Shown here one piece after another: positions 3,111 through 57,121 of a stretch of 64,000 bases of DNA. Position numbers and translations under genes: made by a program. The notes beneath the pieces are model-generated. The model was given only the letters and a program-made list of their open reading frames with translations. It made no database searches and was not told where the DNA came from. Position 1 is the stretch's first letter. Each line of letters begins with the position of its first letter. This stretch comes from an uncultured Bacilli bacterium (lineage in GTDB: Bacteria; Bacillota_I; Bacilli_A; RF39; UBA660). Where the stretch lies: contig CAKPGL010000002.1 of assembly GCA_934154785.1 (NCBI GenBank), forward strand, positions 1,780 to 65,779, given 5' to 3'.

Positions 3111-3848
3111 ATGAATTTTAGTAGTCAAGAACATTTAGAATTATATTTAAAAGGATTAAAGGAACTAGGATTTGGTTCACAAGGTGTGGTATATCAAGAT
3201 AAGAAAAATAATAAAGCTATAAAAATTTATGATTTATTTTTAGATGGCGATGAAGAAGAATATATGTATGATAAGAATGAAATATTAAGATTTAATAATA
3301 TTGTTAATGATACTTATGTTTTCCCTGAAGACGTAGTATCTATTAATAATAAAGTAGTTGGATACATAAGTAAATATGTACAAGGTAAGTCTTTATATAA
3401 AATTAATCCTTTATTAATTAAATTAGATGATTTTACAAATTCTATTAACTCGGTTATAAAAGATACAGATAAATTAACTAGAGAATCAATTGCGACTTAT
3501 GATGTTATGTATAATATAATGTATATTAATAAAAAGTTTTATATAATAGATACTGATGAATATAGTTATACATTTAAGGATTTAAAACGATTATCAAAAG
3601 ATAATAATAGTAACTTTGATACTTCTATTAAATATTTCTTAGTAGATTGTTTATTCGATGAATTTGTAGAAAGTTATAAATTGTTATATGAAATGTATAA
3701 AGATGATTACTGTGATAGTATAACTTTTTTAAAAGAATTTAAAAAATTACTTAGTGAGTATAATGGTAAAGAAATAAATAAATTACATGAAGTAAAAAAT
3801 TGTACTAACAAAGAAAAAAGAATAGAAAAATTTATTCGTTACGTGTAA
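3111..3848 (+). CDS. small protein-kinase-like fold protein (245 aa)
   Basis: Kinase-like motifs in order: G-loop LGFGSQGVVY, AIK lysine (KAIKIY), hinge-like YISKYVQGKSLY, catalytic-loop-like YDVMYNIMY (D and N kept), and DFG-like IIDTDEY. RBS GAGGGGGA. Confidence 0.55.
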   Translation: MNFSSQEHLELYLKGLKELGFGSQGVVYQDKKNNKAIKIYDLFLDGDEEEYMYDKNEILRFNNIVNDTYVFPEDVVSINNKVVGYISKYVQGKSLYKINPLLIKLDDFTNSINSVIKDTDKLTRESIATYDVMYNIMYINKKFYIIDTDEYSYTFKDLKRLSKDNNSNFDTSIKYFLVDCLFDEFVESYKLLYEMYKDDYCDSITFLKEFKKLLSEYNGKEINKLHEVKNCTNKEKRIEKFIRYV

Positions 3849-3923
3849 CATAAAAGTATTATGAAATAATAAGTTCATAGTACTTTTTTTCTTATTCGTG
3901 ATATAATAAAAAAGGTGAAGGGT

Positions 3924-6185
3924 ATGAAAAGATTTAATCCTAATATAAATAATGGTTTAAGTAGTGATTTAGTTAAATATCAAATAGAAAATAATAATGT
4001 TAATATTGATACTACGGTTCCTACTAGAAGTTATAAAACTATAATATTAACTAATATTTTTACTTTATTTAATACATTAAATTTTATTTTTGCGGTAATT
4101 ATTTTCTTTACTGGTAGTTATAAAAATTTATTATTTTTAGGTACGGCATTTTGGAATACCCTTATTAGCGTTATTCAAGAAATACGTGCTAAAAGAGAAG
4201 TAGATTCTTTAAGACTATTATGTGAACCTAAAGTAACAGTGGTTAGAGATAGTAAAGAAGTTACTATTGGAATAAATGAAATAGTACTTGATGATATAAT
4301 TAAATTTAAATTAGGTAATCAAGTTATAGTAGATTCTATAATATTAGAAGGTGAAGTTTCTGTAAATGAAGCATTTATAACTGGAGAGTCAGAACCAAAG
4401 ATATATAAGAAGGGAGATATGCTTCTTTCTGGTAGTTTTATTGTAAGTGGTAGTTGTACAGCTAAAGTAGAACATATTAAGGAAGATAACTATAGTTCTA
4501 AGATTTCTAAAGAAGCTAAATATTTAAAAAAGGTTAATTCTATTTTATTAAGTTCTTTAAATAAAATTATTAAAATATTATCTATAGTTATTATACCTTT
4601 AGGAACTTTATTATTTTGCAATCAATACTTTTCATTACATAATCCTTTAAATACAGCATTAATTAATACAGTTGCGGCTTTAATTGCTATGATACCAGAA
4701 GGATTAGTTCTTCTTACTAGTACAGTACTTGCTGTTAGTGTTATTAGACTTTCTAAAGATAAAGTTTTAGTAAAGCAACTTTATTGTATAGAAACTTTAG
4801 CACGTGTAGATACAATTTGTTTTGATAAAACAGGTACTCTTACCTTAGGTGATATGAAAGTAAAAGATGTAGTTTTATTAAATAAAAGATATTCTCTAAA
4901 TAGCATTATGACAGATATTTGTGGAAATCTTAATAATGATAATGCTACAATGGAAGCATTAAAAAAGTATTTTAAGGGTGATACTTATAATAAGGCTAGT
5001 AAAATAATACAGTTTTCTTCTGATAAAAAATATAGTGGTATAGAAGTTAATGGTAATACTTATTTATTAGGAGCACCAGAATTTGTATCAGATTCTTCTA
5101 TAGATTTATCAAAGTATGAAGATTATCGTGTTTTAATGTTAGTTAAAAAAGATACCAAGAATATACCTATAGGATTAATTTTACTTGAGGATAACTTTAG
5201 AACAGATGCTAAAGAAACAATTGATTATTTTATTAATCAGGGAGTAGATATAAAAATAATATCTGGAGATAATCCTAAGACAGTAAAAAGTATTGTTAGT
5301 AGATTAGGGTTAAATATTGATAAATATGTTGATTGTAGTAAACTTAGTGATGAAGAATTAATGTCTTGTGTAGATAATACTAATATATTTGGTAGGGTTA
5401 CACCTTTTCAAAAGAAAATAATTGTTAAGAAACTACAAGAATTAGGTCATACTGTTGCTATGGTAGGTGACGGTGTAAATGATGTTTTAGCACTAAAACA
5501 GTCAGACTGTAGTATAGCTTTAGCAAGTGGTAGTACAGCTGCTTACAATGTATCAGATTTAGTATTATTAAATTCTGACTTTACTTCTATACCAAATATT
5601 GTAAAAGAAGGAAGAAGAACCATAAATAATATTGAGAAATCTGCTAGTTTATTTATAGTAAAAACAGGTTACGCTGTAATGTTAACATTTATTTTTATGA
5701 TAATTCCTTTTAATTATCCATTTATTCCAATTCAACTTACTCTTACTAGTTCTCTTACTATTGGAATACCATCTTTCTTATTAGCGTTAGAACCAAATAA
5801 TGATAAAGTATCTGGTAATTTTTTAACTAATGTATTTAAAAAAGCGTTACCAACATCTTGTATTATAGTTATTCATATTCTTGTTATAACTTTATTACCA
5901 ATACCTAGTGATCAAAAAACTACTTTATCATTAATAATGGTAGGATTTATAGGATTTACTCATATTTATAGAATATGTAAACCATTAAAACCATTTAATT
6001 TAATGATGCTAATTGTACTTATAGGTATATTTATATTTGGAATAGTAGGATTAAATGAATTATTCTCATTAACTATAATAAACTTAAGAATGTTATTAAT
6101 AATTGTTTTATTGATAATAAATAGTTTAGTAGAATTTAAAATAGTAGATACTACAAATGAGTATTTAAAGAAAAAAAATAATTAA
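3924..6185 (+). CDS. cation-transporting P-type ATPase (HAD superfamily)
   Basis: Phosphorylation motif CFDKTGTLT, TGES actuator motif (ITGESEP), hinge GDGVNDVLALKQSD, and multiple TM segments. ATG 3924 follows AAGGTGAAGG; the track start GTG 3915 lies within the RBS. Confidence 0.9.
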   Translation: MKRFNPNINNGLSSDLVKYQIENNNVNIDTTVPTRSYKTIILTNIFTLFNTLNFIFAVIIFFTGSYKNLLFLGTAFWNTLISVIQEIRAKREVDSLRLLCEPKVTVVRDSKEVTIGINEIVLDDIIKFKLGNQVIVDSIILEGEVSVNEAFITGESEPKIYKKGDMLLSGSFIVSGSCTAKVEHIKEDNYSSKISKEAKYLKKVNSILLSSLNKIIKILSIVIIPLGTLLFCNQYFSLHNPLNTALINTVAALIAMIPEGLVLLTSTVLAVSVIRLSKDKVLVKQLYCIETLARVDTICFDKTGTLTLGDMKVKDVVLLNKRYSLNSIMTDICGNLNNDNATMEALKKYFKGDTYNKASKIIQFSSDKKYSGIEVNGNTYLLGAPEFVSDSSIDLSKYEDYRVLMLVKKDTKNIPIGLILLEDNFRTDAKETIDYFINQGVDIKIISGDNPKTVKSIVSRLGLNIDKYVDCSKLSDEELMSCVDNTNIFGRVTPFQKKIIVKKLQELGHTVAMVGDGVNDVLALKQSDCSIALASGSTAAYNVSDLVLLNSDFTSIPNIVKEGRRTINNIEKSASLFIVKTGYAVMLTFIFMIIPFNYPFIPIQLTLTSSLTIGIPSFLLALEPNNDKVSGNFLTNVFKKALPTSCIIVIHILVITLLPIPSDQKTTLSLIMVGFIGFTHIYRICKPLKPFNLMMLIVLIGIFIFGIVGLNELFSLTIINLRMLLIIVLLIINSLVEFKIVDTTNEYLKKKNN

Positions 6186-6236: not shown

Positions 6237-7046
6237 ATGAAAAATAAGTATTTGAGTTTTTTTATTCCAATAATAATTACTTTAATTATATGTATTAGTT
6301 TTATTGTAACTGTAAATATTAGAATGGATAAATATAATAAAAGACAAGCAGAAATAGAAGAAGCAAATAAAATTAAAGAACAAGATAATCCTGTAATCAA
6401 AGAAGATACGAGAAAACCAGTAAAAAACTTATTAGCGGATAAAATTGGTGTTGGTGTTAGTTACGTGGCTCCTGATTTTAAGGCTAACAAACTTATGATA
6501 GTGGCGCATCCCGATGATGAAACTCTTTGGGGTGGTATGCACTTGATAGAGGATGATTATGCTGTTATTTGTGTAACTTGTGGTGTTGTAAAAAAAAGAG
6601 AGTTAGAATTTGCTAGTGCTATGGATTATTCTAATGATGAATACGCTATGTTAGGACATACAGATTTAAAAAATGGTTATATTAGTGATTGGACTGATGA
6701 ATATCAAGATATTGAAAAGGAACTTACGAAAATAATTGATAGTAAGAATTGGGATATCATAGTAACACACAATCCTAATGGAGAGTATGGGCATAAACAT
6801 CATAGAAAAATAAATAAAATAGTTACTAGTAATACAAATGATAAAAATAAACTTTATTATTTTGGCAAGTTTTACACTCAAAATGATATTGGTAATATTG
6901 ATTCTAGTACTGCCTTTACTGGTGAAAGACTAAATAAAAAAATAGGTATGTTAAAACTATATCCATCACAAGGATTACCTGATACTAATCCAAGATACTA
7001 TCAAATGTATCCTTATGAAAACTGGATATCTTATAATAATTGGTAA
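6237..7046 (+). CDS. PIG-L/LmbE-family deacetylase with N-terminal membrane anchor
   Basis: AHPDDETLWGG motif and later GEYGHKHH. N-terminal TM helix. RBS GGTGA. Confidence 0.8.
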   Translation: MKNKYLSFFIPIIITLIICISFIVTVNIRMDKYNKRQAEIEEANKIKEQDNPVIKEDTRKPVKNLLADKIGVGVSYVAPDFKANKLMIVAHPDDETLWGGMHLIEDDYAVICVTCGVVKKRELEFASAMDYSNDEYAMLGHTDLKNGYISDWTDEYQDIEKELTKIIDSKNWDIIVTHNPNGEYGHKHHRKINKIVTSNTNDKNKLYYFGKFYTQNDIGNIDSSTAFTGERLNKKIGMLKLYPSQGLPDTNPRYYQMYPYENWISYNNW

Positions 7047-7049
7047 TAT

Positions 7050-7078
7050 AAAACAGATAGAGGAAATCTATCTGTTTT
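7050..7078. terminator. bidirectional intrinsic terminator between convergent genes
   Basis: Stem AAAACAGATAG (7050-7060) pairs with CTATCTGTTTT (7068-7078). A-run and T-run flanks. Confidence 0.6.
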
Positions 7079-7517
7079 TAGTGTCTTTCTTACCATATAA
7101 CCAATCTAATGATACTTTATATCTTTTACATAATTCTATAGCGAATGCTGTTAAAAGTAAAGTGTTACCTTGTTCATAAGAAAATATAGTAGATGGTGTT
7201 GTATTTAAAATATCTGCTAATTTCTTTAAAGTTAAATTATTACTTTCACGTAATTCTTTTAATCTTTTCCCAACAACTTTTTTATTTATATTACATCTTT
7301 TATTATTAGGATAATTCTTTTCTTTAGATAAATTAAATAAATAATCTAAACTTACATTAAAGTGGTCTGCAATAGCGTTAGCTTTATTAATATTAGGAAT
7401 TTCTTTTTCATTTTCCCAGTTACTAATACTAACTCTGTTACCACCAATGATATTTGCAAGTTCTTGTTGCGTTAACTCATTATCTTGTCTAATATCTGCT
7501 ATTTTACTAAAATACAT
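7068..7517 (-). CDS. XRE-family transcriptional regulator with two tandem HTH domains
   Basis: Two Cro/C1-type HTH units: LTQQELANIIG..RVSISNWEN and LTLKKLADILN..PSTIFSYEQG. Each ends in SLD(Y/W)L(F/Y). RBS AGGTGA. Confidence 0.85.
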   Translation of the reverse strand: MYFSKIADIRQDNELTQQELANIIGGNRVSISNWENEKEIPNINKANAIADHFNVSLDYLFNLSKEKNYPNNKRCNINKKVVGKRLKELRESNNLTLKKLADILNTTPSTIFSYEQGNTLLLTAFAIELCKRYKVSLDWLYGKKDTKNR

Positions 7518-7605
7518 ACTATCACCTAATTAAAATCTTCTCATTTTTGAAGAAATTATTCAGATTTAGTAGGAAAATACGAATAAAATGTGATATAATG
7601 TAGTT

Positions 7606-7741
7606 AGTAAGTGAAAGAACTATCTTTTACTTACTGTATTAGAAGAATAATAATCAGTATAACCGTAATCCAAAACCACTGAAAAAAATACAGATTAACT
7701 TTATTCTTTTAATCAGGGGGCAGACATTGTCTGTCTTTTTA
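7606..7741 (+). ncRNA. candidate stand-alone structured small RNA (about 135 nt), family unknown
   Basis: Extended -10 TGaTATAAT at 7591-7599. Nested helices 7606-7612/7629-7635, 7639-7650/7701-7712 and 7652-7660/7688-7696. Ends in a hairpin plus T5 at 7718-7741. No ORF. A separate consensus promoter follows. Confidence 0.35.
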
Positions 7742-7763
7742 TGTAATTATATGTAAATTTTTC

Positions 7764-7792
7764 TTGCTAATTTATAAAAATTATTTTATAAT
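7764..7792 (+). promoter_or_regulatory. sigma-A type promoter for the leader and surface-protein operon
   Basis: TTGCTA (7764-7769), 17-nt spacer, TATAAT (7787-7792). Confidence 0.6.
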
Positions 7793-7821
7793 TGTATTGT
7801 AGTATGAGAGGCTGAAGAAGT

Positions 7822-7917
7822 ATGAATAATGATGTAATATTTACAACTAGTTTACCGGGGGGGGGGGTATTAAGTAATACTTCTCTAGATTTAATATATA
7901 TAAAAGCACAAAGATGA
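7822..7917 (+). CDS. 32-codon leader ORF containing the poly-G tract (MNNDVIFTTSLPGGGVLSNTSLDLIYIKAQR)
   Basis: ATG 7822, weak RBS (GAGG 7807-7810), and stop TGA 7915-7917 located inside the downstream terminator hairpin. It is open only at the present G11 length. Confidence 0.3.
   Translation: MNNDVIFTTSLPGGGVLSNTSLDLIYIKAQR
7857..7867 (+). repeat. G11 homopolymer (candidate slipped-strand phase-variation tract)
   Basis: Eleven consecutive G read directly at 7857-7867. It is the only long G/C homopolymer I noticed in this AT-rich window. Confidence 0.9.
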
Positions 7918-7953
7918 TTAGAAGTAATTCTAATTTGTTTTTGTGCTTTTTTG
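7902..7953 (+). terminator. intrinsic terminator / attenuator upstream of the surface-protein operon
   Basis: Outer stem AAAAGCACAAA (7902-7912) pairs with TTTGTGCTTTT (7940-7950). Inner stem ATTAGAA (7917-7923) pairs with TTCTAAT (7928-7934). T-run follows. Confidence 0.65.
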
Positions 7954-8030
7954 TATTACCTCAGTCTCAAAAAAGGAAGTGATAAAAAAGTAAAAACTAT
8001 AATTTACAAATTAAATAGAAGGAGAAAAGT

Positions 8031-9221
8031 ATGAAAAAAGTATTATATTTAATGCTTACAGTATTTTGTGTTGTATGCTTGTCTGGTTGTGGTAAGAAAT
8101 ATACTGTATCATTTGATACTGATGGTGGAACTAAAGTAGAAGAAATAAAAGTAAAGAAAAACGCTACGATAGAAGTTTTACCAACTACAACAAAAGATGG
8201 TTATACATTTATTGAATGGCAATTAAATGGAAAAACATTTGATAAAAGTACTAAGATAACAAGTGATATAACATTAAAAGCTAGTTGGCAAAAGAATGCA
8301 GAACCAACTGTAGAAGTAAAGAAATATAAAGTAACATTTAATACAGATGGTGGAAGTAAAATAGAAAGTGTTGAAGTTGAAGAAAATAAGACATTAGAAA
8401 AACCAGAAAATCCAACAAAAAAAGGATATACTTTTGATAAATGGATGTTAAATAATAAAGAATATGACTTTGATACGAAAGTAACAAAAGATATTACTTT
8501 AAAAGCAACATGGAAAAGAGAAGAAACAAAACCAGCTGAAGAAGTAAAATATACAGTAAAATTTGATTCAAATGGTGGAAGTAATGTTGCTAGTCAAACA
8601 GTAGTAAAAGGAAATAAAGTAACTAAGCCTGCTAATCCAACAAGAAGTGGCTATACTTTTGAAGGATGGACTTTAGATGGCAAAGTATATAACTTTAATT
8701 CTACTGTTATTAAAAATATTACTTTAAAAGCAACATGGAAAAAAATAGAAGAAACAAAGCCAGCTGAAGAAGTAAAATATACAGTAAAATTTGATTCAAA
8801 TGGTGGAAGTAGTGTTGCAAATCAAACAATAGTAAAAGGAAATAAAGTAACTAAACCTGCTGATCCAACAAGAAGTGGCTATACTTTTGTTGGTTGGACA
8901 TTAAATGGTAGTAGTTATGACTTTAATACTCCAATAAATGGAGATATAACATTAAAGGCTAATTGGAAAGAAGTAGTAGTTGCTAAAACATATACCGCTA
9001 CTATAGAAACAGTAGATCCTTATTCACCAGATAGATATATAACAATAAAGGAAAATGGTGTTGCTATAAAAATAGCTAAATTAATGTATACAGATAATGT
9101 AGAAATAATTTGTGCAATAAATGGTACAAAAATAAGTGTAGCATATGCCGATATAAATGGTGAATCATCATTTAAAGTACAATTATTAGATGGTAGTATA
9201 GTAACTGCTAAAGTAGGATAA
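8031..9221 (+). CDS. surface lipoprotein with four Listeria-Bacteroides (Flg_new, InlB B-repeat type) repeats
   Basis: Signal peptide with lipobox LSGC. Four units of about 70-76 aa follow the pattern Y.V.F..(D/N)GG......V......(P)..P...GY.F..W.L.G..(Y/F)(D/N)....I..(D/N)ITLKA.W. RBS AAGGAGA. Confidence 0.85.
   Translation: MKKVLYLMLTVFCVVCLSGCGKKYTVSFDTDGGTKVEEIKVKKNATIEVLPTTTKDGYTFIEWQLNGKTFDKSTKITSDITLKASWQKNAEPTVEVKKYKVTFNTDGGSKIESVEVEENKTLEKPENPTKKGYTFDKWMLNNKEYDFDTKVTKDITLKATWKREETKPAEEVKYTVKFDSNGGSNVASQTVVKGNKVTKPANPTRSGYTFEGWTLDGKVYNFNSTVIKNITLKATWKKIEETKPAEEVKYTVKFDSNGGSSVANQTIVKGNKVTKPADPTRSGYTFVGWTLNGSSYDFNTPINGDITLKANWKEVVVAKTYTATIETVDPYSPDRYITIKENGVAIKIAKLMYTDNVEIICAINGTKISVAYADINGESSFKVQLLDGSIVTAKVG
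8523..8978 (+). repeat. tandem 228-bp (76-codon) direct duplication inside the lipoprotein gene
   Basis: Copies at 8523-8750 and 8751-8978. The first 150 nt or so are nearly identical by eye; the 3' third has diverged. Confidence 0.85.
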
Positions 9222-9231
9222 GGAGGTAAGC

Positions 9232-11727
9232 ATGAAAAAGAAAATAATAAGTTTATTATTAGTATTAAGTGCTTTTTTAATTACTAGTGGAGTAAGTGCT
9301 AAAGAGATGTCAAAAGATGATATAAAACCTGGAACTTATATGATAGGAACACATCTTTTTACAAGAGTTACCGCTGGTGAATATGATGGTACATTAACTG
9401 TCAGATATATAATGTTAGCAGCAAGGACAATAAATAGTGCAAATATAGATGACATGATTATTTATTTAAAAAACTCACGTGGTAAATGGGTAAATGCTGT
9501 TACAAATGAAGAGGTAACAGTACCAAATAAAGTAGATATTTATTATGAGAATTCAGTAGAAGAGTTTTTACCTAAAACAGAAATAGATTCTGGTTTAGAT
9601 ATTACATCGGCTCAATGGTTATTTTATCCATTATTTGATGAAAGAACAGTTGCAGAAACAACAAGTGGAAATATAAAAGAGTATCAATTTGAACTTTATG
9701 AAAAAACAGGTTCTGATTATACTTTTATTAATTCTCGCACTGTTAATCCTAGAGTTGGTGCTCCAGTGTATGTTTCTGCAACTAATGAAGTAAAAACATA
9801 CGTTGGTAGATTAGCAATCACAAATTCAAAAGGTGAAAAAATATATAGTGATTATTCAAACGAAGTAACAGTAGATACAAAAAATGAATTAGCTGTTCCA
9901 AACATGATAAGTGAATTGAATATCCAATACGATAGTTCCAGAGCTGATTGGTTTTTCAATATGTATTTGGATGAAGAATTTAAAAATAAATATCCAAGTG
10001 ATACTAGATACAATTTTGAATTATCTGAGAAAACAAGTTCAGGATATGTTTATGTAGATGATGCTTTTACTGAAGGAATGAGGGGAAAAGATGCGAGTGC
10101 TGATATTTCAAATGAAACTAAGACTTATGTAGCAAGATTATACATTAAAAATTCAGAAGGTGGAAAAATCTACAGCAATTATTCAGAGGAATTAACATTA
10201 AGCCTTAAGGATTCTATTCCAACACCAGAAATTTTCTATGAGTGTGATATGAGTGGTTGTTCAGTAAATGTGGCCGATTTTTACTTTAGAACATCTTGTA
10301 ATAACTCTAGTTCTTGTTCATCTACTGTTGCTGACAAACTTATAGGTAATTACTATTATAATGTTTATGAAAAAAATGGTAATAAGATAGATAATGGATA
10401 TGCTTTGGGTGCTAGAGGGAAAACTGCAAGTATTACAGATATTTCAAATGAAGAAAAAACGTATGTAGCTAAGTTATATCTTACAAATTCAAAAGGCGAA
10501 GAAGTAGTTAGTAAAGAATCAAATGAAATAACAATATCTGCTAAAGATATTTTAGGAAAACCAGAATTGAAATATGGCTGTACTGGTGCATCTTGTTCAA
10601 TTTGGATTAATTACAATACGGAACTTGCTAATGAAGTAAACTATGTAGTTTATGAAAAAACAAATGAAAGTTATACAGAAGTAGGTACTGCTATTTCAAA
10701 TGGTGGAGAAGCAGGTACTGCAGTAAGTATAACACTTACAAATGAACCAAAAACATATGTTACAAGATTTTACATAACAAATTCTGCTGGTGAGAAATTA
10801 TACAGTGATTATTCAGATGAAGTAATAATCAACGCTAAAGATATTCTAGGAAAACCAGTGTTAGAATATAGTTATGAAGCATCTGAAGGAAAGTTAAATT
10901 TTAATCTTAAATCTGATTCAAAATATTTAACCTCACCAGAAAATGCATTTGATTATAGTGTTGAATTATATGAAGAAAATGGAGAAAGTTTTGATTTAAT
11001 CAAAACAGAAAAATATAACACTTCTACTGGTGGCTCTACTATGTCTATAACTGTTCCAAGTGATGTAAAAACATACAAGGCAAGATTATATATTAAAAAC
11101 TCAAATAGTGAAAAAATTTATAGTGATTACTCTAATCTAATATTTATTGATCCAAATGGTATTATTCAATTAGAGGAAGTTGCAGTGGTAGGATATGAAG
11201 AAGAAAATAAACAAAAAGTAACTTATAAATTTAAAGATGATATATATACAAAATACACTAATATAGAAGTGTTATATATGTATGAAGGAAAAACAGATTG
11301 GGAATTATATTCTGATACTATAACTGCTTCTGAAGAATTTGAGATAGAACAAACATTTGGTCAGATACCTGAAAGAATTAGTGTAAGATTATATAAAGAA
11401 GTGGATGGTCAGAGAGTGTATACTAGTGGATACACCATATCTTATGATTCGGATACACCACTATTAACAGGTAGTGGTGTGGCTGTTGAACCAGAAACTA
11501 ACAAACGTATAGCGTCTTATATGTTTAAAAATGATATATATACAAAATACACTAATATAGAAGTATCGTATATGTATGCAGATTGGGAATTATACTCTGA
11601 TACAATAGAAGCTAATAAGGTATTTAGTATAAAATATGATGATACTCAAACACCTTCAAAAATAAAGGTTAGACTATACAAAATAGAAAATGGTCAAAGA
11701 GTCTATAGTAAAGATACAATTTTATAA
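9232..11727 (+). CDS. secreted modular repeat protein (831 aa), unknown family
   Basis: N-terminal signal peptide (LITSGVSA-KE). Five modules of about 110 aa each end in KTY(V/K)(A/G/T)(R/K)(L/F)(Y/A)(I/L).NS.(G/S)E(K/E).(Y/V)S.(Y/E)S(N/D/E).(V/L/I). Two C-terminal units of about 98 aa (DIYTKYTNIEV..MY...DWELYSDTI...RLYK...GQRVY). RBS AAGGAGG. Confidence 0.85.
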   Translation: MKKKIISLLLVLSAFLITSGVSAKEMSKDDIKPGTYMIGTHLFTRVTAGEYDGTLTVRYIMLAARTINSANIDDMIIYLKNSRGKWVNAVTNEEVTVPNKVDIYYENSVEEFLPKTEIDSGLDITSAQWLFYPLFDERTVAETTSGNIKEYQFELYEKTGSDYTFINSRTVNPRVGAPVYVSATNEVKTYVGRLAITNSKGEKIYSDYSNEVTVDTKNELAVPNMISELNIQYDSSRADWFFNMYLDEEFKNKYPSDTRYNFELSEKTSSGYVYVDDAFTEGMRGKDASADISNETKTYVARLYIKNSEGGKIYSNYSEELTLSLKDSIPTPEIFYECDMSGCSVNVADFYFRTSCNNSSSCSSTVADKLIGNYYYNVYEKNGNKIDNGYALGARGKTASITDISNEEKTYVAKLYLTNSKGEEVVSKESNEITISAKDILGKPELKYGCTGASCSIWINYNTELANEVNYVVYEKTNESYTEVGTAISNGGEAGTAVSITLTNEPKTYVTRFYITNSAGEKLYSDYSDEVIINAKDILGKPVLEYSYEASEGKLNFNLKSDSKYLTSPENAFDYSVELYEENGESFDLIKTEKYNTSTGGSTMSITVPSDVKTYKARLYIKNSNSEKIYSDYSNLIFIDPNGIIQLEEVAVVGYEEENKQKVTYKFKDDIYTKYTNIEVLYMYEGKTDWELYSDTITASEEFEIEQTFGQIPERISVRLYKEVDGQRVYTSGYTISYDSDTPLLTGSGVAVEPETNKRIASYMFKNDIYTKYTNIEVSYMYADWELYSDTIEANKVFSIKYDDTQTPSKIKVRLYKIENGQRVYSKDTIL

Positions 11728-14685: not shown

Positions 14686-15144
14686 ATGGGAAAATTTACA
14701 ATTAGACAAAACGGTTATGATATTAATGAAGTAAATAATTTCTTAGATCAAGTTATTAACCAAGTTGAAAGAATGGTTAAGGATATTAAGAAAAAAGATG
14801 AGTATATCAATTCTATTTCTAATATTGAAGAAGAAAATAAGAAATTAAAAGAAAAGGTAGCGCAACATGAGCGCCTTGAGAGTACTTTAAATCGTGCTAT
14901 AATCATGGCTGAGAAAACAAGTGAACAAATTAGAACTGCTGCTCAAAAAGAGAGTGAAATTATCATAACTGATGCTAAAAGAAATGCTAATCGTATTGTA
15001 AATGATGCCCTATTAAAGGCTGAAAAAACAGAAATGGAAGCAGATATGTTAAAACGTAATGTTACTATTTTTAAGAAGCGTTTGAGAGGTATTGTTGAAG
15101 CCCAATTAGAAGTAATTGATGATATAGAAAAAATTGAAATGTAA
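14686..15144 (+). CDS. divIVA: DivIVA-domain protein
   Basis: N-terminal F....GYD..EV..FLD motif followed by a coiled coil. Sits immediately upstream of the ileS T-box, as in Bacillus. Confidence 0.8.
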   Translation: MGKFTIRQNGYDINEVNNFLDQVINQVERMVKDIKKKDEYINSISNIEEENKKLKEKVAQHERLESTLNRAIIMAEKTSEQIRTAAQKESEIIITDAKRNANRIVNDALLKAEKTEMEADMLKRNVTIFKKRLRGIVEAQLEVIDDIEKIEM

Positions 15145-15152
15145 AACAAATG

Positions 15153-15352
15153 AACGAGACGTTATATTTAGAATATTGTAGAGAGTCTATGGTTGGTGAA
15201 AATAGACATTGCATAAATATATAAATCACTCGGGATGTGTTTGGGGGATAATCCTAAGACGGTAACGCGTTATAGTTTCAAGTATAATATTTTTATTATA
15301 AAAATAAGGTGGTACCACGCTAATGCGTCCTTAAAAATGGTGCTTTTTTTTG
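15153..15352 (+). promoter_or_regulatory. T-box riboswitch leader (Ile specifier AUC) controlling ileS
   Basis: AGAGAG box and GGTGAAA in stem I. Candidate specifier ATC-A at 15225-15228. Conserved T-box AATAAGGTGGTACCACG at 15303-15319. Terminator helix plus T8 ends near 15350. Confidence 0.85.
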
Positions 15353-36142: not shown

Positions 36143-36240
36143 TAAAATCTATTACTGTGTAGAGCCTCACTCTACAACCGCTCAGAAAAAGGTTATAAAC
36201 TTCGGTACCTTAATGGCGAGTCTTAGAAAGTTAGGAGGTT
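36143..36240 (+). promoter_or_regulatory. probable ribosomal protein L21 leader
   Basis: Relatively GC-rich structured segment of about 100 nt (for example GTAGAGCCTCACTCTAC) immediately upstream of rplU, at the position of the Firmicutes L21 leader. Confidence 0.4.
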
Positions 36241-56953: not shown

Positions 56954-57039
56954 TGGTGCAGGTGAAGGGACTTGAACCCCCATGCCGTAAGGCGCTAGAT
57001 CCTAAGTCTAGTGCGTCTGCCAATTTCGCCACACCTGCA
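56954..57039 (-). tRNA. tRNA-Leu (anticodon UAG), CCA encoded
   Basis: The reverse complement folds as a cloverleaf: acceptor TGCAGGT/ACCTGCA, anticodon stem CTAGA/TCTAG with loop CTTAGGA, long variable arm, TTCAAGT T-loop. Confidence 0.9.
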
Positions 57040-57044
57040 TCAAG

Positions 57045-57121
57045 TGGTGGACCCTGAAGGACTCGAACCTTCGACCGCCCGGTTATGAGCCGGATGCTCT
57101 AACCAACTGAGCTAAGGGTCC
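57045..57121 (-). tRNA. tRNA with CAU anticodon (elongator Met or lysidine-modified Ile2), CCA encoded
   Basis: Acceptor GGACCCT/AGGGTCC, D-loop AGCTCAGTTGGTTAGAGC, anticodon loop CTCATAA, T-arm GAAGG-TTCGAGT-CCTTC. The G1-C72 pair excludes an initiator. The overall sequence recalls Bacillus tRNA-Ile2. Confidence 0.85.

Follow-up and report, generated by a model that had tools for sequence, protein, structure and literature searches.

A length-variable poly-G tract in a leader open reading frame that ends within an intrinsic terminator ahead of a surface-protein operon of uncultured gut Bacilli

The modes by which sequence repeats are known to control gene expression are frameshifting within a gene, changes in promoter spacing, changes in regulator binding and, in 5' untranslated regions (UTRs), the provision of targets for small RNAs (sRNAs) or RNases. 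We know of no documented case of a repeat-based switch in the lineage of uncultured gut Bacilli. Here we describe a poly-G tract within a short leader open reading frame (ORF) that lies upstream of a surface-protein operon in a 64-kb stretch of DNA (64,000 nucleotides, called the window below) from an uncultured Bacilli bacterium. Like the poly-G contingency loci of Campylobacter jejuni, Neisseria and Helicobacter, it is a long G run in an AT-rich genome, it lies near surface genes, it is polymorphic in length and its length changes shift a reading frame. Unlike in those loci, the frame that is shifted is that of a 31-codon upstream ORF, and not that of a structural gene, nor is a promoter spacer altered.

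Three groups of leader-based systems offer a comparison for what such a tract might do. In the pyrBI and pyrE operons of Escherichia coli, translation into or near the attenuator hairpin prevents the formation of that hairpin and governs read-through. The variable in these operons is nucleotide-dependent pausing of the polymerase. The frameshift rph-1 has a polar effect on pyrE (PMC4404585); it is a laboratory mutation, and fixed. In the locus described here an early stop to translation would likewise raise termination and lower downstream expression, but the variable would be a reversible and heritable tract length, and the coupling of ribosome to polymerase in this organism is something that we infer. 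Ribosome-mediated attenuators of Firmicutes, among them bmrCD/BmrB, vmlR, lmo0919 and the erm leaders, share with the present locus a short leader ORF 5' of a terminator, and here too ribosome position would decide read-through; they depend, however, on drug-induced stalling and on alternative antiterminator and terminator structures, whereas the present leader has neither a competitive antiterminator nor an evident stalling signal. Finally, variable repeats are transcribed within the 5' leader, as the tract would be here, in Helicobacter pylori, where the sRNA RepG targets the G-repeat of tlpB (PMC8295292), and in Haemophilus influenzae, where the 5' UTR repeat of hmw1A is processed by RNase III (PMC12721329). 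Control in these two cases is exerted after transcription initiation, is graded and works through sRNA pairing or RNase III, whereas in the present locus an adjacent sRNA candidate pairs with the tract no better than shuffled sequences do and the predicted structure is insensitive to tract length. Full-text searches of one literature library found no repeat-controlled upstream-ORF attenuator, which is not proof of absence.

The leader is preceded by a sigma-70-like promoter (TTGCTA-17-TATAAT, 7764-7792, plus strand) with a predicted transcription start at about 7799. It matches the consensus at 10 of 12 positions and is kept in all 13 of the distinct haplotypes on which our counts of variable sites are based. 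The initial annotation of this DNA had called it near-consensus, and in a promoter scan it was the top sigma-70-like match between 6500 and 9500. A 10/12 match has limited weight alone, since the window is AT-rich (27% G+C) and has about 0.8 matches of at least 10/12 per kb per strand. In alleles of the leader that lie behind a clpB-like gene the -35 hexamer is TTGATA, which raises the match to 11/12, a score with a frequency of 0.09 per kb per strand. Downstream of the promoter a Shine-Dalgarno site, GAGAGG (7807-7812; GAGGGG in the allele of contig L117), stands 9 nt before the ATG at 7822 that opens the leader ORF (7822-7917, 31 codons, peptide MNNDVIFTTSLPGGGVLSNTSLDLIYIKAQR). This ORF has been called by gene callers on 22 contigs, and six in-frame variants of its peptide were found. 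Codons 12-16 (CCG GGG GGG GGG GTA) are made from a G11 homopolymer at 7857-7867, and the TGA stop codon at 7915-7917 falls within the 5' arm of an intrinsic terminator, a 22-bp hairpin with one bulge (7902-7950) whose 3' end runs into U6 (7947-7952) and whose predicted fold has an energy of -20.8 kcal/mol. All the features first described for this sequence, among them the stop codon inside a strong hairpin followed by a T-run, are present at the coordinates given for them, and the whole leader folds at z = -3.4 relative to shuffled sequences.

The G11 tract is the sole run of G or C longer than 5 in the 64-kb window, where the expectation under independent, identically distributed bases is 2e-4, and the remark that no other long G/C run had been noticed is borne out. 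In order to compare alleles, the same locus was retrieved from many human-gut metagenome assemblies by exact-protein look-ups of neighbouring genes; the related strains are metagenome-assembly contigs 91-99.7% identical to the window, and the allele was taken as the segment bounded by the conserved sequences TTTACC and TATTAAG. This segment is G11 (11 nt) in the window strain and in L097, TG10 (11 nt) in L003 and others, TG9 (10 nt) in L001 and L002, AG9 (10 nt) in L085, and G9 (9 nt) in L105 and L117, while L118 carries an interrupted and locked allele, TAGGGTGGGGG (11 nt), which is in frame. The length heterogeneity that had been anticipated in relatives thus exists, with runs of G9, G10 and G11, and all three leader reading frames are found among strains; two of the unselected distinct strains are in frame and five are out of frame, with no obvious bias. 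L105 is 99.64% identical to the window across 9,167 aligned bases, and the tract is the only indel between them. Apart from the tract, the 513-nt intergenic region is 96-100% identical among strains. Also within the 90% cluster of the leader peptide are alleles in which the run is interrupted once and the frame is kept (PGEGV, PGRGV and PGAGV). The run is longer than the approximately G8 expected of a simple-sequence-repeat contingency locus, and its length is polymorphic between conserved flanks in close relatives, as is also expected of such loci. Taken together, these observations make it highly probable that the leader ORF contains a true hypermutable tract.

A second tract was found in a related rabbit-gut Bacilli metagenome-assembled genome (MAG). 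On contig L032 (1495-1530, minus strand) a G10 tract is found six codons downstream of the ATG in a gene whose product has a membrane or signal segment at its N-terminus; with G10 the frame runs immediately into a stop, while G9 would open it, an arrangement that resembles a classical intragenic poly-G switch. This was the only other G/C run of at least 8 in about 570 kb of related MAG DNA, which comprised eighty loci, from other MAGs, of the XRE regulator family that also has a member upstream of the leader. Judging from this second sequence, the clade appears to use poly-G switches.

A possible role for the G tract is to set the frame in which ribosomes approach the terminator. Transcription would begin at the 7764-7792 promoter, and the terminator at 7902-7952 would intervene before the lipoprotein gene that heads the operon. 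Where the segment between TTTACC and TATTAAG measures 3n+2 nt (11 in the window), ribosomes would reach the TGA at 7915-7917 and would there cover the entire 5' arm of the hairpin, such that the hairpin would be blocked and the polymerase would proceed into the operon (ON). Where the segment measures 9, 10 or 12 nt, ribosomes would halt at a TAA just after the tract, 25-30 nt before the hairpin, and after such an early halt the terminator would fold and the operon would be OFF. The frames are those given in the initial annotation, G10 reading ...GGG TAT TAA and G12 reading ...GGT ATT AAG TAA, although the distance is less than had been thought: the off-frame stops lie about 25-30 nt 5' of the hairpin base at 7902 and not more than 30 nt. 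In folding calculations, masking the footprint of a ribosome at the in-frame stop abolished the terminator, and masking the footprint at the early stop left it intact, as had been predicted for a masked 5' arm. A hairpin formed by the G tract itself (7861-7886), together with the U-rich sequence downstream of it, may act as a pause site, giving the ribosome time to draw level with the polymerase. With the stop codon of the 3n+2 frame at 7915-7917 inside the 5' arm (7902-7923), the geometry is that of the pyrBI/pyrE type. The locus does not conform to the trp type of attenuator, since there is no competing antiterminator and no tRNA-sensing run of regulatory codons, the only run of one amino acid being the Gly codons made by the tract.

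Several other ways in which tract length might be read out were considered. The tract hairpin is a predicted 11-bp structure, present in both the minimum free energy and the centroid folds, in which the 3' part of the G tract and UAUU pair with AAUACUUCUCU; its energy is -10.6 kcal/mol, unchanged for G8-G12. It and the terminator fold as two independent hairpins, the fold is identical for G8-G12, and a length-dependent RNA structure was rejected on this ground. A classical antiterminator was rejected as well, because the sole alternative found by folding, a 7-bp pairing of 7878-7884 in the 3' arm of the tract hairpin with 7920-7926 at the terminator apex, is too weak to compete (-9.0 versus -21 to -32 kcal/mol). 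As the spacer of a plus-strand promoter (TTTACC-N18-TAATAC) the tract would be joined to a -10 that is without the invariant T6, and the transcript would still meet the terminator; as the spacer of a minus-strand promoter (TTACTT-N17-TAAACT) it would be joined to a -35 with only 2/6 matches, and neither of these promoters was reported by the promoter scan. Fusion of an off-frame leader to the lipoprotein gene is ruled out because both off frames meet a stop directly after the tract, and because the lipoprotein gene has a Shine-Dalgarno site of its own and encodes a signal peptide. Since the fold is independent of length and the sRNA-pairing and spacer readings fail, the reading frame is the only length-dependent property that we identified.

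One further predicted pairing joins 7808-7815 to 7961-7968 (GAGGCUGA with UCAGUCUC) in a long-range helix that brackets the leader ORF and the terminator. In read-through transcripts this helix, which overlaps the Shine-Dalgarno site of the leader, could make that site inaccessible, or the pairing could be due to chance.

The pattern of variation among the haplotypes is uneven across the leader. The region 7868-7955, from the end of the tract through the terminator, has 1 variable site in 88 nt versus 14 in 181 nt of flanking leader (P = 0.025). The single variable site of the terminator, G7913A in L117, converts a G.U pair to an A-U pair, and the stem stays paired. The non-tract portion of the tract hairpin (7868-7886) is invariant in all haplotypes, and the C-terminal 16 codons of the leader ORF are invariant even at synonymous sites. 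Upstream of the tract, codons 2-12 hold four substitutions, three of them synonymous (21% expected; P = 0.03), and the base that precedes the run varies between G, T and A, each giving a synonymous Pro codon. As far as can be judged from these comparisons, the variation fits better with constraint on an RNA element than with constraint on a functional peptide.

It would follow from the attenuator reading that the operon is dependent on transcription from the leader promoter. No sigma-70-like promoter of at least 9/12 was found between the terminator and the lipoprotein start (7953-8030). The sole candidate for a promoter of the operon's own is a lone TATAAT hexamer at 7998-8003 (plus strand), without a -35 or a TG extension, which lies 27 nt upstream of the lipoprotein ATG and reads AATAAT in the low-coverage contig L119.

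The full mechanism, in which tract length sets the frame and the frame sets terminator read-through, is plausible, and we hold to it tentatively. The parts of the initial proposal that stand are the hypermutable repeat, the strong terminator and the lack of a good promoter downstream; translation of the leader ORF, termination at the hairpin, relief of termination by ribosome occupancy and the polarity of the switch would all have to be as we propose. A number of observations weigh against it. The per-codon stop frequency implies that chance would bring one frame, and only one, of the three to the hairpin in about 40% of cases, and a frame open for 12 codons has a probability of about 0.3 at this composition. 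The geometry of a stop within a terminator is ordinary here, as the upstream XRE gene, on the minus strand, also has its last four codons and TAG stop (7068-7070) within the 5' arm of its own terminator. Without a competitive antiterminator the attenuator model needs tight proximity of ribosome and polymerase. The prevailing view is that transcription and translation in low-G+C Firmicutes are mostly uncoupled, and uncoupled, run-ahead transcription is reportedly the case in Bacillus subtilis. GGG makes up 3% of Gly codons and CCG 3% of Pro codons, so that three rare GGG codons and a rare CCG would slow the ribosome where it must keep up. An activator-dependent promoter could make use of the perfect TATAAT at 7998-8003. 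The peptide cluster adds the non-synonymous variants T9N, S10I and D4G in the N-terminal part of the leader peptide, and constraint at the peptide level is therefore weak. Lastly, the tract lengths are those of assembly consensus sequences, and the comparison has the depth of one species.

If the coupling holds, a repeat in an upstream ORF that gates an intrinsic terminator would be an added mode of repeat-based control, one that switches a multi-gene operon while leaving the promoter and coding sequence of that operon untouched, and the locus would be a natural genetic test of ribosome-polymerase distance in a low-G+C Firmicute. It is conceivable, and again offered with reserve, that this is a contingency locus acting by attenuation, in which slipped-strand changes in the poly-G tract give heritable and reversible ON/OFF switching of a whole surface operon, within a recombining cassette of uncultured gut Bacilli.

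The strongest competitor to attenuation is that the leader is a stand-alone phase-variable small gene, in which the tract toggles a 31-amino acid peptide but has no effect in cis on the operon, which is transcribed from its own promoter near 7998-8003, perhaps with the help of an activator. The promoter, Shine-Dalgarno site, ORF and terminator do form a complete transcription unit, the repeated calls by gene callers agree with this, the XRE gene shows that a stop within a terminator stem is nothing unusual in this DNA, a perfect -10 hexamer stands in front of the lipoprotein gene, and codons 2-12 have an excess of synonymous changes. The peptide itself, however, has no Pfam match and no signal peptide or transmembrane segment, and a type I toxin was rejected as its identity since it has no hydrophobic helix. 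The absolute conservation of its last 16 codons, synonymous sites included, looks like constraint on RNA and not on protein, its N-terminus tolerates the three substitutions named above, the ORF is out of frame in most unselected strains, and the candidate operon promoter consists of a -10 hexamer with neither a -35 nor a TG extension. We regard this explanation as rather unlikely but as a serious rival.

It is also possible that the tract is hypermutable but free of any regulatory role, being a recent slippery run in a dispensable leader ORF whose length drifts neutrally. The presence of all three frames without obvious bias among the unselected strains, the occurrence of interrupted alleles and the restriction of the whole module to one species-level lineage would agree with drift. 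An 11-G run at 27% G+C, on the other hand, does not arise or persist by drift in a window where the next longest G run is 5; the one comparable run in the related MAG DNA is itself in a classical switch position, and contingency loci typically have such a position, in front of a hypervariable surface-protein operon. Neutral drift is accordingly improbable in our view.

A third explanation is that the tract acts at the RNA level and independently of translation, as an sRNA-targeted G-repeat or a processed hairpin in the 5' UTR whose length gradually tunes mRNA stability or translation. The target by which RepG is defined is a G-repeat within a transcribed leader (PMC8295292), and there are known cases of a 5' UTR repeat that folds into a hairpin with a complementary arm (PMC12721329). 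In the present leader, pairing is predicted between the G tract and CUUCUCU at 7880-7886, and the downstream part does not vary in nucleotide sequence. The adjacent sRNA candidate, however, pairs with neither the G tract (-10.0 versus a mean of -13.1 kcal/mol) nor the leader better than shuffled sequences do and is missing where the cassette lies behind the clpB-like gene, the energy of the tract hairpin is the same for every length from G8 to G12, and between the tract and the ribosome-binding site of the operon lie 160 nt and a terminator. Action of this kind seems quite improbable.

That the length differences are sequencing or assembly artefacts is very improbable: Illumina chemistry is error-prone at long G runs and one low-coverage contig (L004, about 8x), which gives only a hint of within-population switching, starts inside the tract, but one strain from several samples or assemblies (L101, L103, L106 and L108, some of which may share source reads) always has G11 between 100% identical flanks, which argues against random homopolymer error, the G9 allele of L117 comes from an assembly with 84x coverage, and the alleles differ jointly with linked single-nucleotide polymorphism haplotypes.

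The limits of the cassette are indicated by a second genomic context. In L093 and L118 the block of promoter, leader ORF, tract, terminator and lipoprotein gene lies directly after the terminator of the clpB-like gene, and the homology between this context and that of the XRE gene starts at about 7747, just 5' of the 7764 promoter, and the functional cassette accordingly begins at this promoter. Contigs L098 and L099 break at window position 7768, which is the left edge of the cassette. The XRE gene and the sRNA candidate are both absent from the copies behind the clpB-like gene; the initial annotation had placed them immediately upstream, and they do adjoin the leader in the window, but they are not obligatory and are better regarded as neighbours than as components. 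The XRE orthologues that were looked up, at 72-77% identity, keep approximately the first 85 nt of the region and are without the sRNA, the leader and the operon. No similar leader was found with nhmmer at the eighty XRE-family loci from other MAGs, and scans of JGI metagenome contigs and of IMG/VR viral contigs found nothing. Nor did Rfam 15 return a family match in the leader, either in a gathering-threshold scan of the window or in a permissive scan of 7500-8100, where the best E-value was 0.86 and the matches were microRNA models on the hairpin. The clpB-like AAA+ gene context itself (L093, 1-1420; L118, 1-1345) may be either a second genomic location of the cassette or a second copy of it.

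The first gene of the operon (8031-9221, plus strand) encodes a lipoprotein with four Flg_new (InlB B-repeat) domains and the lipobox LSGC, and has the Shine-Dalgarno sequence GGAG at 8021-8024. The second (9232-11727, plus strand) encodes an 831-amino acid secreted repeat protein that has a signal peptide and belongs to no Pfam family. The number of repeats in the lipoprotein varies among strains, giving proteins of 320, 321, 396 and 472 amino acids, and in other strains, including L001, L003/L104 and L117, the second gene is swapped for genes that encode unrelated proteins of 877, 655 (dockerin/Flg_new) and 535 amino acids. On this sequence evidence the operon is a hypervariable surface-protein locus. 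Whatever the mechanism, uncultured human-gut Bacilli carry poly-G contingency tracts beside fast-evolving surface-protein cassettes, which is of relevance to strain-level variation, to phage and immune interactions, and to breaks in metagenome assemblies.

Between the XRE gene and the leader, positions 7591-7745 (plus strand) hold the candidate small RNA of about 140 nt, with an extended -10, TGATATAAT, at 7591-7599 and a terminator at about 7716-7745. Its predicted structure has a 13-bp 5' hairpin (7606-7635) and a long-range helix joining 7638-7650 to 7701-7713. It has no Rfam match and is 100% conserved in L001 and L002. The tandem-HTH XRE regulator family is multicopy in uncultured gut Bacilli MAGs (contigs L005-L046), a single MAG having as many as four or five loci, as in Lapin-022 bin92, Lapin-008 bin76 and NALB_7961_7.

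The XRE gene is convergent with a gene for a PIG-L family deacetylase (6237-7046), and the two have a bidirectional terminator in common at 7050-7078. The PIG-L gene lies between a P-type ATPase gene and the XRE gene; it is absent from L117, L094 and L095, where the ATPase gene abuts the XRE gene, and it appears truncated or split in L085 and L097. In L002 its position is taken by a gene for a 719-amino acid large serine recombinase (3842-6001; Resolvase and Recombinase domains), followed by an HTH gene, directly downstream of the XRE gene, which is probably an integrated mobile element. Elsewhere in the window are a T-box leader (15141-15335, 97 bits), a ribosomal protein L21 leader (36166-36233) and genes for tRNA-Leu and tRNA-Met (56954-57121), which are consistent with a Bacillota chromosome. 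The two leaders, and nearest relatives that are uncultured gut Bacilli MAGs, agree with the assignment to the Firmicutes that had been made from the sequence alone.

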